Origin: Myxococcota bacterium
GTDB taxonomy: Bacteria; Myxococcota_A; SURF-8
Assembly (NCBI GenBank): GCA_963674735.2
Contig: CAXXQS010000002.1
Coordinates: 1,088,001-1,152,000, forward strand
Direction of reading: 5' to 3'
Length of the DNA stretch: 64,000 nucleotides
The position numbers were made by a program, and so were the translations under genes. Below the pieces are notes generated by a model. It saw only the letters and a program-made list of their open reading frames with translations, made no database searches and had not been told where the DNA came from. Positions 6,003 through 23,431 of the stretch are shown here, in pieces. The stretch's first letter is position 1; the number at the start of each line of letters is the position of its first letter.

Positions 6003-6263
6003 TCACGGCTTCTGAAGCAAGCGTTTCACATCTTCTCGGATGATCCGCAAATCCTCGCGAATGTCACTCATCTGGCGGCATAAATCGGATTGCAGATCGG
6101 CGACGCGCACGTCGGTATAAAGTTGCATATCTCGGTAAAGTCCGAAACCGGCGGCCGTGAGGCTCATCATCAGTGTAACGGCGATCCAGATCCACCCGCG
6201 CCACTCAGCCAGCTCTTTTAAAGTCATCGCGCTTCCTTTCGCGTCGAAGGCCATGGGCATCAC
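6003..6263 (-). CDS. Small single-TM coiled-coil protein, holin-like
   Basis: 86 aa, one TM (WIWIAVTLMMSLTAAGFGLY) plus coiled coil; last gene of cluster. Confidence 0.45.
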   Translation of the reverse strand: MMPMAFDAKGSAMTLKELAEWRGWIWIAVTLMMSLTAAGFGLYRDMQLYTDVRVADLQSDLCRQMSDIREDLRIIREDVKRLLQKP

Positions 6264-6985
6264 TAAACGCTACTGATAGCCAGGCAGGGACCGGTCAACT
6301 CGCCATCTTGAATTTCGATAACCGTCTCCGGCGGTGCCCACAAACGCAATCCCCAATACCAAGGCGTTGACGGCAGAGCGCCACGGATATAAGGGACTTC
6401 TTGCAGACCCATCACAAGCTCCACCACCGTCCACGTGGGTTGGTCCACCCATTGATCGGTTCCACGCCCGATCATATGTGCGCCTTCGGCATCGGCATAC
6501 ACCGCCGCATAAAGCCGCGCGGGGTCGGATCCCGCCGTTTGGCGCACCTGCACGCGCGTGCGTAAAAACACGGCATAATCATGTGGGACGAAAGGCTGTG
6601 CAATCGCTTTGCGCCAGTTCCATCCGGCATCCGCTTCAATGGCGGTACCCGTATGGAAGTCGTTGACCACCGCCGGAACCGGCACGTCTTTTCCGTCCCC
6701 CGCGACAATGATCGGCGAACCGAAGTCGGGAGCGCTTTGGAATACACCCCGATTCTGGTTGACGATCACCGGAAGCCTTCTCCCGCGCCCCTTACCGGTG
6801 TGGTCGAACTGGCAGCGATTGGTTCGCATATTCGCGCCGGGAACCGGGCGGGCCATGTACCCTTCATAGAGCCAGGCACCATTTCCAACGAAGGCCTGGG
6901 CCAGATCGGCCGTAACGGCTTTGCCGTTTTTCAACGTCTCTTCGGGTAAGCTGCGAAAGGCGGGAGGAACGATCATCTGCGACAT
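6263..6985 (-). CDS. Putative tail tip/fibre protein (paralog 3)
   Basis: Downstream of hub; shares N-terminal motif with the two upstream genes; AGGAGG RBS. Confidence 0.55.
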   Translation of the reverse strand: MSQMIVPPAFRSLPEETLKNGKAVTADLAQAFVGNGAWLYEGYMARPVPGANMRTNRCQFDHTGKGRGRRLPVIVNQNRGVFQSAPDFGSPIIVAGDGKDVPVPAVVNDFHTGTAIEADAGWNWRKAIAQPFVPHDYAVFLRTRVQVRQTAGSDPARLYAAVYADAEGAHMIGRGTDQWVDQPTWTVVELVMGLQEVPYIRGALPSTPWYWGLRLWAPPETVIEIQDGELTGPCLAISSV

Positions 6986-6997
6986 TCTGTGCCTCCT

Positions 6998-7981
6998 TTA
7001 CAGATGTGAGAAATAGGCGATGGTTACCGGTCGCGGTGTTTTCTTTTCACGTTTGAACCACAAACAGGCATCCTCCGGCCCCAAGGTAACCGGCAACAGC
7101 TGCAACAGATCGCCATTGAAAGTCAGATCGACCTTGAAAGAGTGAACGCCTTCCTCGAACGTGCGCAGGTCCAGGCTCAATGCATACCAGATCGGCTGCC
7201 GACTCCCGGTGGGATAGAGTGTTTGCCAATCACCGTTGAGATCGCCACTCGAAAGCCGTATTTTAAAGGCCCAAACCGCATCGTTGTCGGTGGGTAAGGA
7301 TAGCAGTCGCTCTCCGTCCGCCATGGAAGCAGACAAACTGCAGGCGGCGGGAATCAGTAATGTGAGACGGCGCGCCCAAGCGGGAACGAAAAGGTTTAGT
7401 GCTTTTTCGCCACGGACGCCGTACGCCCGCACAACCGTTCCACCGCCCGGAACGAGCGGCAGCGGATCCCAGAGGCTGACCATCGTAGCCTCGACATCCG
7501 AATTGTAACACGCATTTTTATAGAGAAAACGTCCGTTGATGGCCGTATCGTTAAGCGTAAGATACTGGCCATCCTGAAAATAGGCGGCGACGTTGCCGTC
7601 AAGCCATAAACGATAGCGACTATCGGTGAGAGAGCCGTTCACCACCGGATGAGGAGCCACACCGACCTGCAAATAAATGCTGGTATCGCTACTGGAAAAG
7701 AAACGTGAGAACGGCACGGCGTTGGCAGCGCCGTTGACGAAATGCCGCGCCGGTTGACCGGCAATCTGGGCCGTCCACAGCGGAATGGTCGGGCCTCCAT
7801 GCGCACCGTGATCGTGGCTCACGACCGCATTCGCGCCACCCGGCAGATCGTCTCCCGTGGCGAGCTTGAAAAGGTAGTTCAAATTTTCGGCCGCCGCGCT
7901 GAAATCCTGCGCTAAAATCGGCCGGTCGGTTTGCAAGGCCAACGGATCGACCGTATTGAAGGTATGGTCATGAATCGTCAT
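6998..7981 (-). CDS. Putative tail tip/fibre protein (paralog 2)
   Basis: N-terminal ..ENLNYLF..PG.NA..HDH motif; ATGA coupling. Confidence 0.55.
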   Translation of the reverse strand: MTIHDHTFNTVDPLALQTDRPILAQDFSAAAENLNYLFKLATGDDLPGGANAVVSHDHGAHGGPTIPLWTAQIAGQPARHFVNGAANAVPFSRFFSSSDTSIYLQVGVAPHPVVNGSLTDSRYRLWLDGNVAAYFQDGQYLTLNDTAINGRFLYKNACYNSDVEATMVSLWDPLPLVPGGGTVVRAYGVRGEKALNLFVPAWARRLTLLIPAACSLSASMADGERLLSLPTDNDAVWAFKIRLSSGDLNGDWQTLYPTGSRQPIWYALSLDLRTFEEGVHSFKVDLTFNGDLLQLLPVTLGPEDACLWFKREKKTPRPVTIAYFSHL

Positions 7982-8691
7982 ACTGTTTCTCCGATCAATA
8001 AACCCGAGCCATCAAGCACGTGGCCCGAAACCGGTTTGAAAACCGATTCGGCGTCCGCGATCTGTGCGACCTGCCCTGCCGTGTCGCTGCGCAACCACAA
8101 TTTGAGTGAACACCAGCCGCTGAAGGCCGCCAGATTGGCGATGGGCAGGTTGAAAGTCACCGCCGTCCAGCCGGTAGCGGACGTGCTTTGCTCATCCGCA
8201 ACCAATTCCGCTCCGTCGCGCCACACCGAGAGACGAGCAATCGCCGACGCTCCCCCTTCCGCTTTCAGAAGGACCGGGAATACGAGTTCGGTGTATTGGC
8301 GGTCGAGATAAATTTCCTGAATAGCGCGCGCCAGCTTCAAGCCCGCCGATTCTTCGCCCGTCGCACCGGGTCCACCCGTGTTGGCCATCTCCCACAACAC
8401 GGGCATATAAGAGATGCTCGACGAGGACTGAGCATAGAGATGGCCCAAACGAAAGCTGCCGTGACGAGAGAGATACACGCCATCCAGGGCGTCACGCCCA
8501 TGGGCGTGACCGGATTGCGTCGCCGTAGCGTTTCCCGAAACCGGCCGATCCGTAAGATGTTCGTAAAAAGCGGCCCCGGTTTGGGCGAACCAATACGCCA
8601 CATCGGCGCTGAGGGGCGCATTGTCAGCCACTTCCTCGGTGTGCATTCCGCGCAGCGTATCGCATGGCGCACACAAAATCGGATTGCTCAT
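7978..8691 (-). CDS. Putative tail tip/fibre protein (paralog 1)
   Basis: N-terminal ..FYEHLTDRPVSGNA..HAH motif, beta-rich C-terminus. Confidence 0.55.
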   Translation of the reverse strand: MSNPILCAPCDTLRGMHTEEVADNAPLSADVAYWFAQTGAAFYEHLTDRPVSGNATATQSGHAHGRDALDGVYLSRHGSFRLGHLYAQSSSSISYMPVLWEMANTGGPGATGEESAGLKLARAIQEIYLDRQYTELVFPVLLKAEGGASAIARLSVWRDGAELVADEQSTSATGWTAVTFNLPIANLAAFSGWCSLKLWLRSDTAGQVAQIADAESVFKPVSGHVLDGSGLLIGETV

Positions 8692-8722
8692 GTTCTATCC
8701 TGTTTTGATCGGTTGAAAGGTA

Positions 8723-22817: not shown

Positions 22818-23256
22818 CGGCGTTTACCCCCTCGATACTCAGCGACAGCGGCGCGTCGGTTTCGTCGAGCGGCAACAGCCCCGCGAGTCCGGCATGGGCG
22901 GTTTTAAGTACCCCGGCGGCGGCGGCCAGATTTTTCAGGTCATCCTGCGCTTCCAGTCCGCCGCTCACGCATTCGCCCAGTCGCAAGGACAATTCCCACC
23001 ACATCGACAACAGCGCGGTGCGGGCCACCGGCGCGTCCGGCAGCGAGCGGTGTCCGAGACGCAACCGGCGTCGGCGCATCTCCCAGCCTTGCGCCACACG
23101 GCGCAACGCGACCGGGTTCATTCCGTGGCGTTTGGCGAAGGTCGCCAGCGAGGGACAGCTCGAACGCATGAAGCGCAATTCCAGTTTATCGCGTTCGGCC
23201 TGGGTGGTCGGCAAAGCGAAACGCGTCCTCGACGATCGATCGGATGAATTCGACAT
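22807..23256 (-). CDS. Putative terminase small subunit
   Basis: 149 aa overlapping TerL start; HTH-like SLATFAKRHGMNPVALRR plus helical oligomer region; AGGAGA RBS. Confidence 0.55.
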   Translation of the reverse strand: MSNSSDRSSRTRFALPTTQAERDKLELRFMRSSCPSLATFAKRHGMNPVALRRVAQGWEMRRRRLRLGHRSLPDAPVARTALLSMWWELSLRLGECVSGGLEAQDDLKNLAAAAGVLKTAHAGLAGLLPLDETDAPLSLSIEGVNADAF

Positions 23257-23271
23257 GGGGTCTCCTGCATG

Positions 23272-23304
23272 AAAAAACCCGGCCGAATCGGTCGGCCGGG
23301 CTTT
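23272..23304 (-). terminator. Intrinsic terminator in the leader of the phage-like cluster
   Basis: CCCGGCCGA-CCGAT-TCGGCCGGG-TTTTTT, ending 15 nt before the first ATG. Confidence 0.8.
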
Positions 23305-23327
23305 AAGCGCACGTGGGCTTGACTCGA

Positions 23328-23356
23328 ATTCAAACACAATCTTCCCCCCTTTTCAA
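23328..23356 (-). promoter_or_regulatory. Candidate sigma70-type promoter of cluster
   Basis: TTGAAA-N17-TTGAAT with TG extension; -10 imperfect. Confidence 0.4.
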
Positions 23357-23431
23357 GGAGCGTTTCGGAGCATCGTAGAGCTTGCGGGAACCCGCAGGAG
23401 CGTGGGGGAGCGCCAAGGAGCGCAACGGAGC
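23357..23431. repeat. Eight GGAGC-like pentamers phased at exactly 10 bp
   Basis: GGAGC at 23357, 23367, 23397, 23407, 23417, 23427; AGAGC at 23377; GGAAC at 23387; variable 5-nt spacers. Confidence 0.9.

Follow-up and report, generated by a model that had tools for sequence, protein, structure and literature searches.

Layout and boundaries of the cluster

The window, the whole 64,000-nucleotide stretch of DNA analysed here (G000:C2:1088001-1152000), comes from a 5.26 Mb assembly in three contigs of an uncultured Myxococcota lineage represented by metagenome-assembled genomes (MAGs), and carries on its minus strand a virion gene cluster of 21 tightly packed genes, 17.4 kb in length, predicted to encode the packaging machinery, head, neck, and tail of a phage-like particle (Table 1). 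The class to which the host belongs holds only ten species genomes, designated G000 to G009 with G000 holding the window, and L numbers denote extracted loci, L065 to L068 being metagenome contigs. The chain of open reading frames (ORFs) runs unbroken from 23337 to 6003, with start and stop codons overlapping at 22807-22817, 16631-16634, 7978-7981, and 6263. Five products could be identified, namely the large terminase (TerL), the portal (by fold), the scaffolding protein (by weak matches), the major capsid protein (MCP), and the tail tube protein; 13 of the 21 ORFs are without any family match.

Host genes stand close to both ends. On the left, the cluster stops 6 bp from a convergent gene for a CarboxypepD_reg protein, which ends at 5996 and is accompanied by genes for an FHA-GAF sigma-54 activator and a PEGA protein; on the right, 138 bp separate plsC (Pfam Acyltransferase, 8e-34), which is upstream, from the earliest start codon possible for the small terminase (TerS) gene, and the same flank carries genes for a DUF3881 protein and rpe. 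The same abutment of host genes on both sides is seen in G003, G004, G006, L065, and L067. Cluster and flanking host genes are similar in GC content at third codon positions (GC3; 0.69 and 0.72, respectively), a search around the cluster for a bracketing direct repeat of the att type found none, and the nearest tRNA gene is at 55899, with none within 32 kb. That gene belongs to a tRNA-Arg, tRNA-Ser, tRNA-Ser group at 55899-56740; GC content falls from ~0.61 to 0.51-0.54 beyond 59 kb, and the GC-poor region past the tRNA group, 55899-64000, may be an island. An Rfam scan of 5500-24500 returned a single sub-threshold match and nothing else. The stretch is present in contigs of three runs from one study, which may be the source sample, and is in one piece in two of the three; no RNA run was among those listed, and neither an excised form nor an empty site appeared in these contigs, a kind of data in which they would not show. 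An earlier reading of the DNA from its letters alone, here called the sequence-only reading, had described an uninterrupted packaging, head, and tail gene set with overlapping start and stop codons, bounded by host genes without an adjacent tRNA gene or att repeat in a Myxococcota-like host; the ORF chain, the flanks, the repeat search, and the lineage of the MAG all agree with that description.

Packaging and head genes

TerL is recognised by profile, and seven orthologues agree without exception in its Walker A motif GSGKT and in the nuclease blocks SFDFNV, HGDA, and DHxGD, which argues that DNA packaging itself is under selection. The best TerL match in a cultured phage is 28% identical; a six-frame Terminase_6N search of G000 was insensitive, missing even the cluster's own TerL. 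The TerS candidate most likely starts at 23256, a corrected gene call with AGGAG as ribosome-binding site (RBS) before the ATG. It matches nothing in Pfam or PHROG, and a profile search of 5.8 billion proteins returned only four relatives. In its AF2 model (overall pLDDT 68.9), residues 19-67 form four short helices at pLDDT 86-88; a Foldseek search with this model gave nothing at E <= 0.001, the weak top rows being mostly helix-turn-helix regulators, with the Sf6 TerS at rank 45. As modelled, the N-terminal helix bundle could be a DNA-binding domain.

The portal was identified through its fold. The 483-aa protein has no match in Pfam, PHROG, PDB sequences (nothing below E 0.1), or a tblastn search of 50,697 phage records, and a profile search brought up 523 remote relatives, 53 of which, once aligned, gave an AF2 model with pLDDT 91.9. 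All Foldseek rows listed for this model (ranks up to 50) are portal or portal-vertex entries of phages and satellites, Bxb1 being the best at 9e-13, and SPP1_portal matches two of the 53 remote homologues; by its predicted structure, the gene between TerL and the scaffold gene is thus a portal gene. The gap between portal and scaffold genes contains a terminator-like hairpin, and nothing comparable was seen at that place in the other genomes.

The MCP passes the Pfam GP7 profile (38.4 bits, cut-off 27; Pfam placement GP7/SU10_MCP), and the closest cultured-phage MCPs, 45-46% identical, come from Bacillus PK2 and from Paenibacillus siphoviruses, whose genomes measure 50-59 kb. Pfam matches thus support what the sequence-only reading had proposed for the head, a scaffold in the place of a protease and an MCP of epsilon15-gp7 type. 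The 119-aa gene after the MCP belongs to a conserved 118-aa family in G002, G003, G004, and L065, and possibly encodes a head decoration protein.

Neck and tail genes

Two of the four genes in head-completion or neck position (16631-17335 and 16179-16634) are kept in all lineages, and one (17381-17794) was found only in G000. It occupies a variable slot between the MCP gene and 16631-17335, holding a 137-aa gene in G000 and unrelated or divergent genes for 390-769 aa in G003, G004, G006, and G009 (for example L010:10646-12322, L013:7882-9054, and L016:7437-9746), one of which has a weak 'phage tail repeat' match; the slot may encode lineage-specific head or neck fibres.

The 414-aa protein encoded next is taken to be the tail tube because two of its orthologues, P0006 and P0004 (43% and 56% identical), pass the Pfam profile Phage_tube_2 with 48.9 and 29.8 bits (cut-off 27). 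It has only six relatives in 5.8 billion proteins, and neither a PDB-chain profile search (nothing below E 0.1) nor tblastn against the 50,697 phage records found a match. An extra gene stands between the tube and chaperone-position genes in G006 and G009 and is missing from the other genomes; that of G006 (L016:12195-12731, 178 aa) matches PHROG 1040, 'peptidase HslV family', at 6e-12. The 240-aa protein beyond the chaperone-position genes is helical at its N-terminus, contains hydrophobic segments at about residues 95-150 as well as a stretch rich in Gly and Ser, and is tape-measure-like by these features and its position.

The two ~238-aa genes in distal-tail or hub position have counterparts in the other genomes, where they form the conserved families 12 and 21/36. 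The ORF beyond them, 1119 aa as called, most likely starts at its invariant M82 (11839), giving ~1038 aa; it is conserved at 25-43% identity in six genomes, has weak PHROG matches to tail fibre, tail, and virion proteins at residues 247-330, and matches neither PDB sequences (nothing below E 0.1) nor, by tblastn, the 50,697 phage records. The three distal genes possibly encode fibres or receptor-binding proteins, to judge by position. A search for paralogues of the 327-aa gene returned that gene alone, and paralogy among the three, or between the two ~238-aa genes, was rejected, being suggested by transitive BLAST links and unsupported by direct BLASTP (E 0.85, 0.019, and 0.2). Overall, the tail gene order reads as that of a siphovirus tail, the assignments other than the tube being positional.

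Table 1. Features of the virion cluster, its control region, and the second locus. Positions refer to the window unless another contig coordinate is given.
Feature	Position	Strand	Basis or remark
Virion cluster	6003-23432	minus	21 tightly packed genes, ~17 kb
Phased repeat array, ~8 x 10-bp units, core CGCTCC, putative operator	23351-23432	minus	abuts and enters -35
Sigma-70-like promoter, TTGAAA-17 nt-TTGAAT (predicted)	23328-23356	minus	read from sequence
Leader hairpin + U6, predicted intrinsic terminator	23272-23303	minus	fold; ~15 nt upstream of TerS RBS
TerS candidate, 149 aa	22807-23256	minus	by position; overlaps TerL start
TerL, 441 aa	21492-22817	minus	PHROG 2 at 1.3e-34; Pfam Terminase_3, Terminase_6N
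Portal, 483 aa	20031-21482	minus	AF2 + Foldseek
Terminator-like hairpin, portal/scaffold gap	19985-20006	minus	8-pair stem, 7 GC pairs, then TTTTCTTT
Scaffolding protein, start uncertain, ~185-195 aa	19441-20028	minus	Pfam Phage_scaffold 4.3e-5 (below cut-off); PHROG 194 at 3.5e-4
MCP, 303 aa	18502-19413	minus	PHROG 212 at 5.5e-66; Pfam GP7
Gene after MCP, 119 aa	18139-18498	minus	corrected gene call; PHROG 9522, C-terminal part, 1.5e-9
Four genes in head-completion/neck position	17798-18367, 17381-17794, 16631-17335, 16179-16634	minus	no family matches (Pfam, PHROG)
Tail tube protein, 414 aa	14908-16152	minus	PHROG 290 ('minor tail protein') at 1.4e-11
Two genes in tail-assembly-chaperone position, 154 + 122 aa	14018-14865	minus	position; conserved across genomes; no family match
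Short tape-measure-like protein, 240 aa	13279-14001	minus	follows tube and chaperone-position genes
Two genes in distal-tail/hub position, ~238 aa each	12569-13282, 11853-12569	minus	corrected gene call; no family match
Large protein in tail/host-recognition position, ~1038 aa	8723-11839	minus	position and weak PHROG matches
Three distal genes, 237 + 327 + 240 aa	6263-8691	minus	conserved in G003 and G004, weaker in G006; no family match
Last gene, 86 aa	6003-6263	minus	one hydrophobic helix, charged C-terminal part (hydropathy scan); conserved in G003 and G004
MuF-like/AHH-nuclease gene, 328 aa	G000:C2:1982609-1983592		~871 kb from cluster, between host-type genes

The control region

Upstream of the TerS candidate lies a compact succession of repeat array, promoter, leader terminator, and RBS. 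The self-match of the array at a lag of 10 exceeds all 200 shuffles in three cases, at 0.60 in G000 (shuffle maximum 0.50), 0.53 in G003, and 0.54 in L065; TRF counts only 2.6 copies in the G000 array. The array stands at equal distance from TerL in the three and its core differs, being CGCTCC in G000, CGCC in G003, and (A/G)TGT in L065. The promoter block is conserved in G003 and G004, with TTGCAA...TATATT as its equivalent in L065. The leader that would follow, ~50 nt in length, ends in an 8-bp GC stem with six U residues, after which come AGGAG and the ATG at 23256; its fold has an energy of -29.7 kcal/mol (z -3.45), a stability attained by none of 200 shuffles. Hairpins with a U-run and differing stems are found in G003 (twice), G004, L065, and G002, and a convincing one was looked for in G006 and not seen. 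A consensus scan listed neither promoter nor leader hairpin, and both are proposed from sequence reading, folds, and conservation across genomes. The architecture upstream of the cluster is thus conserved while its sequences differ, and a terminator placed between promoter and first gene suggests, by analogy, regulated read-through. Control by activation and anti-termination has been described for the Caulobacter gene transfer agent (GTA) cluster (PMC11150451).

Two further observations concern this region. G003 carries a tandem duplication of the complete 187-bp unit, from array through promoter and leader to terminator (L013:1421-1767; 1.9 copies, 93% identical). In G004, a divergent IS4-family DDE transposase gene (DUF4372 + DDE_Tnp_1; L010:18502-19680) lies right beside the cluster promoter, shortening the repeat array and coinciding with a changed upstream flank. 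The sigma-54 activator on the left flank was considered as a dedicated regulator and rejected, since the activator is present in G001, which lacks the cluster, and absent from G004 and G006, which carry the cluster.

Distribution and co-divergence with the host

Of 41 relatives searched for the MCP, 7 gave a match, whereas the 31 genomes that belong to other classes of the phylum gave none; orthologous clusters are present in six of the ten species genomes of the class and in four metagenome contigs. Whole-cluster tblastn gave the same gene order in G002, G003, G004, G006, and G009, and the boundaries, from promoter to last gene, are identical in all copies. In G003, a member of a different genus, and in the metagenome contig L065, both flanks are as in the window, with plsC on one side and the CarboxypepD_reg, sigma-54 activator, and PEGA genes on the other, so the plsC-flanked locus at which the sequence-only reading had suggested looking in related genomes does hold the cluster. 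An upstream flank is common to G006 and G009, and the flanks differ among G000/G003/L065, G004, G006/G009, and L067.

Beyond the class, loci with MCP relatives were scanned in 80 of 87 metagenome and 80 of 194 IMG/VR cases (160 in total). Further cluster genes are shared by only four of these, L065-L068, whose MCPs are at least 66% identical, and in the other loci (MCP at most 55%) the MCP is either alone or accompanied by a weak match to TerL or, in a single case, to the portal; a short fragment, L144, has an MCP match of 62% over 92 residues. No viral contig carrying the cluster module was found among the 160 loci. G007 and G008 were rejected as carriers, having only distant relatives (26-36%) of TerL, portal, or MCP, which were treated as unrelated phage elements. 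In G008 (L062:11693-14647), a portal relative (36%, with an in-frame TGA) precedes a TerL relative (30%), and in G007 (L021:14280-18427), MCP and TerL relatives are 26-27% identical.

Where the cluster is present, it has diverged along with its hosts. A host tree of RpoB, GyrB, and LepA (2780 columns) groups G000, G003, G004, and G001 and pairs G006 with G009 and G002 with G005, and this grouping is reproduced both by the head tree of TerL, portal, and MCP (1171 columns, five genomes) and by the tree of six tail-side proteins (2007 columns, six genomes). Identity of the head set follows that of the host markers with r 0.98 over 10 pairs, a value reached by 3 of 120 label permutations in a Mantel test, and that of the tail set with r 0.88 over 15 pairs (4 of 720 permutations), the pairs being non-independent and drawn from five to six genomes. 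The MCP is 82, 79, 72-74, and 70% identical to that of G000 where the host core proteins of the same genomes are 79.5, 79.5, 72.0, and 69.8% identical. Between genera whose RpoB, GyrB, and LepA are 68-80% identical, the 21 ORFs have all stayed intact, with amino-acid identities of 30-82%. Nei-Gojobori dN/dS ratios, which are rough because dS is saturated (pS 0.53-0.81), are 0.13-0.46 in the cluster genes where computable and 0.13-0.48 in six flanking host genes. The two evolutionary tests that the sequence-only reading had put forward, congruence of TerL and MCP with the species tree and dN/dS, therefore both came out as it had anticipated, the trees sharing the host topology and the ratios lying well below 1 and matching those of the host genes.

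Absence of recognisable mobility and replication functions

The sequence-only reading had recognised no integrase, repressor, replication, or endolysin gene, and family searches with Pfam and PHROG confirmed this: neither the 21 ORFs nor the variable genes of the orthologous clusters matched a family of integrases, recombinases, repressors, replication proteins, or lysins. The flanks, for which an integrase search by hidden Markov model had been advised, were covered by six-frame genome-wide searches with PF00589 and PF00239 in five genomes (G000, G002, G003, G004, and G006), with 12 matches outside the listing; among the matches listed there is no recombinase within ~24 kb of the cluster in any of the five, nor a tyrosine or serine recombinase inside the window. 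The nearest listed match, ~24 kb from the cluster in G004, is taken to be a housekeeping Xer-type enzyme, given its length and its score as that genome's counterpart of the single top match in each genome. G006 has 100 tyrosine-recombinase matches, many of them identical pairs ~0.85 kb apart (a 296-aa with a 379-aa or 332-aa ORF) in dozens of copies, which look like a proliferating multi-recombinase element.

An intact temperate prophage would be expected to bring integrase, att sites, repressor, and replication genes, and no such families or sites were found in or adjoining the cluster. Capsid-forming satellites (cf-PICI) are defined by an integrase, a regulator, and a primase together with capsid and packaging genes, and have no tail genes; no integrase was found here, and genes for the tail tube and the distal tail are present.

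A second locus with the same array

A search for four GCTCC units in phase, allowing a single mismatch, found only two sites in the 5.26 Mb of G000, and the reversed-pattern control found none. At the second site (G000:C2:1983689-1983723), ~8 units are followed by an RBS and a gene for a protein of 328 aa; the two arrays align in register, each ending in CGCTCCTTGA. This second locus (L227:3-1560, equal to G000:C2:1982191-1983748) adjoins the gene of a Cys-rich DUF7107 lipoprotein. The C-terminus of the 328-aa protein carries a toxin domain, the AHH nuclease of the HNH/EndoVII type (PF14412, 39.6 bits with a cut-off of 22.3), and its N-terminus matches PF04233, Phage_Mu_F, over profile positions 32-111 of 112 at E 5.3e-5, with 24.4 bits and so below the cut-off of 29.6. 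An overlapping 141-aa ORF directly after the gene is in immunity position. In G000, to judge by the shared array, the MuF-like/AHH gene is probably made together with the particles.

MuF genes normally stand directly after a portal gene, and Gp7 of SPP1 binds the portal inside the capsid (PMC5576092). No MuF gene follows the cluster portal, and the 328-aa gene has no portal gene directly before it. Homologues of its product occur in five of the ten genomes, G000 included, and none was found in G004. The link between operator and toxin is a matter of G000 alone, since a shared operator could not be demonstrated in G006, where the homologue has no repeats in common with the cluster promoter, or in G003, where an operator-pattern search returned four distinct sites against two control matches, none before a MuF-like gene, and was too unspecific to define a regulon.

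Interpretation of the cluster and its rivals

In PMC9662315, a GTA viriform is defined as a caudoviricete-derived particle that packages mostly random host DNA and has an endogenised genome, often spread over several loci; the definition goes on to a head too small for its own genome, vertical co-diversification with the host, and delivery to other cells. Three of these features can be addressed in sequence, and on all three the cluster agrees with a GTA: phage ancestry (TerL, MCP, scaffold, and tube by profile, portal by fold), endogenisation (host flanks, host-like GC3, no att repeat or tRNA gene, no recombinase listed nearby), and vertical co-divergence with the host, as indicated by shared loci, congruent trees, and the correlations of identity. 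The AHH locus is possibly a second locus of the element, through the common operator. These comparisons indicate a cluster that is fixed in the chromosome, inherited vertically, kept functional by purifying selection, and of independent origin. The interpretation favoured here, with confidence a little above even, is that it encodes a host-maintained, DNA-packaging particle of the GTA type made from domesticated siphovirus-type virion genes.

Under this interpretation, a regulator encoded elsewhere would bind the phased 10-bp array and fire the sigma-70-type promoter, and the leader terminator would halt transcription unless read through, gating the whole 17 kb operon as in lambdoid late operons and the Caulobacter GTA. 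TerS and TerL, portal, scaffold, and MCP would then build DNA-filled heads, which would join a short non-contractile tail made of the tube, the 240-aa tape-measure-like protein, and the hub and fibre genes. The packaged DNA would be chromosomal and the particles unable to propagate the element, because it has no excision, replication, or integration genes.

Several points weigh against a GTA. The possible N-terminal DNA-binding domain of TerS does so because the TerS of known GTAs lack such a domain (PMC11841831). The head may be big enough for the whole 17 kb cluster, as phages with MCPs 45-46% identical have genomes of 50-59 kb. Missing lysogeny and replication families are not proof of missing functions, since with 13 of 21 ORFs lacking any match such genes could be present in novel form, and the dN/dS ratios are as rough as noted above. 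Losses have occurred: G001 (94% complete) keeps the left flank and then has a metallo-beta-lactamase-fold gene and groEL instead of the cluster, a search for MCP and portal there finding neither, and no cluster was found in G005 (79% complete). In L065 the cluster is ~6 kb shorter (L065:10207-11620), the tape-measure-like gene ending at residue 149 and the next five genes being absent, a gap that takes in the ~1038-aa gene and closes after the second of the three distal genes. G009 differs from G006 by 26 indel runs in TerL, portal, and MCP (L020:13800-18400), ~15 of them single-base and mostly deletions, while its tail genes are open; either decay or assembly error could account for these indels, the latter because the host genes beside the G009 cluster are split too. 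In the host tree, the G009 branch is four times longer than that of G006. The operator shared with a nuclease toxin gene opens a reading as toxin delivery. Finally, the sample of the class is small, ten species genomes that are kin, and only assemblies represent the organism, the evidence for a particle being its genes. Of the proposal of an undescribed GTA lineage made in the sequence-only reading, the domestication has thus stood up, through locus, trees, and dN/dS, and its GTA nature is left in some doubt by the TerS domain, the loss in G001 and deletion in L065, and the toxin-shared operator.

The strongest rival, unlikely in our estimation, holds that the particle is mainly a weapon, either a PBSX-like killer or a vehicle for a head-loaded MuF-like/AHH nuclease directed at cells without the immunity protein, with DNA packaging incidental. 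It draws on the arrangement in G000, where the phased array stands at the cluster and the AHH gene and nowhere else, where the nuclease domain is above its cut-off and followed by an overlapping small ORF, and where the portal, usual neighbour of MuF genes and, according to PMC5576092, the binding site of Gp7 in the capsid, lacks such a neighbour. It has to contend with a MuF match under the Pfam gathering score, with a homologue present in half of the genomes and not found in G004 despite an intact cluster, with the G006 and G003 results, and with the fully conserved terminase motifs, which argue that DNA packaging itself is selected.

Rather improbable, in turn, is a hybrid of GTA and toxin device, in which the regulon of the phased-repeat operator fires the virion operon, the detached MuF-like nuclease, and its immunity gene together for kin discrimination, the particles bringing the nuclease in their heads, and perhaps host DNA as well, into nearby cells. 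Myxococcota are a phylum known for kin discrimination, and to our knowledge no system of this kind has been described so far.

A cryptic prophage remnant, functionless and slowly decaying, with intact frames reflecting slow decay and not selection, would fit the damage seen in G001, L065, and possibly G009 and the many ORFs without a recognisable family. We consider it very unlikely: 21 ORFs have stayed open across genera whose host markers are down to 68-80% identity, dN/dS is host-like, the MCP is as conserved (70-82%) as the host core proteins, the catalytic residues of the terminase are invariant, and the control region has kept its architecture while its sequence changed. Least credible of all is an active temperate phage or satellite with novel or distant functions that repeatedly entered related hosts, to which the differing flanks, the possible DNA-recognition domain of TerS, and the unannotated ORFs could point, since no recombinase is listed within ~24 kb in five genomes and there are no att repeats, the boundaries are identical in all copies, the changed flank of G004 coincides with the IS4-type transposase beside the promoter, the cluster co-diverges with its host and has host-like base composition, and the module is on no viral contig among the loci scanned.

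Relation to known systems

Among known systems, the GTAs of Rhodobacter and Caulobacter type (RcGTA and CcGTA, Rhodogtaviriformidae) resemble the cluster most closely in layout, being ~14-17 kb head and tail sets of structural genes only, without integrase or replication genes, in the order TerS, TerL, portal, MCP, tube, chaperone position, short tape measure, hub, and large distal protein. RcGTA has a prohead protease at the scaffold position and an MCP of another Pfam family, and is set apart by family from the present cluster, with its scaffold gene in the protease place and its MCP in Pfam GP7 and PHROG 212. The cluster also differs from RcGTA and CcGTA in having a host of a different phylum, phased 10-bp repeats and a leader terminator before its first gene, and a TerS candidate whose N-terminal domain may have been kept. 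Like the cluster, RcGTA and CcGTA are inherited vertically and co-diverge with their hosts, one of the defining features given in PMC9662315, and the gating of the operon by terminators is shared with CcGTA (PMC11150451).

Independently derived GTAs outside the RcGTA lineage include Dd1 of Desulfovibrio desulfuricans, VSH-1 of Brachyspira, BaGTA, and VTA (PMC11841831), which give precedent for several separate domestications, as is proposed for the cluster. They come from different hosts, and their particles, unlike that of the cluster, which is known from genes alone, were demonstrated by experiment.

PBSX-type elements of Bacillus are fixed in the chromosome and yield killer particles with a contractile tail, which enclose host DNA, are directed against other cells, and do not propagate; they have their own repressor and lysis genes. 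No repressor or lysis genes were recognised in the cluster, and its tail tube is of a non-contractile type by family. The 328-aa gene resembles MuF polymorphic toxins (PMC5576092) in its N-terminal MuF-type domain, variable C-terminal toxin, and small ORF in immunity position; it differs from them in lying ~871 kb from the portal gene and being joined to it only via the array, in its sub-threshold MuF match, and in the virion cluster being domesticated and not a prophage.

Significance

Few GTAs have been demonstrated by experiment, and only a handful of lineages are represented among them. Outside the alphaproteobacteria, their characterisation has been no more than cursory (PMC11841831), and within the full-text literature collection searched, no description of a GTA in Myxococcota was found. 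The cluster described here, well supported on genomic grounds as an independently domesticated one in this phylum, indicates that such elements can be recognised without homology to RcGTA. Experiments could start from its compact control region, from the terminase motifs, which are invariant, and from the toxin, a candidate cargo whose gene shares the operator. If the toxin link is true, the fields of GTAs and of polymorphic toxins would be joined.

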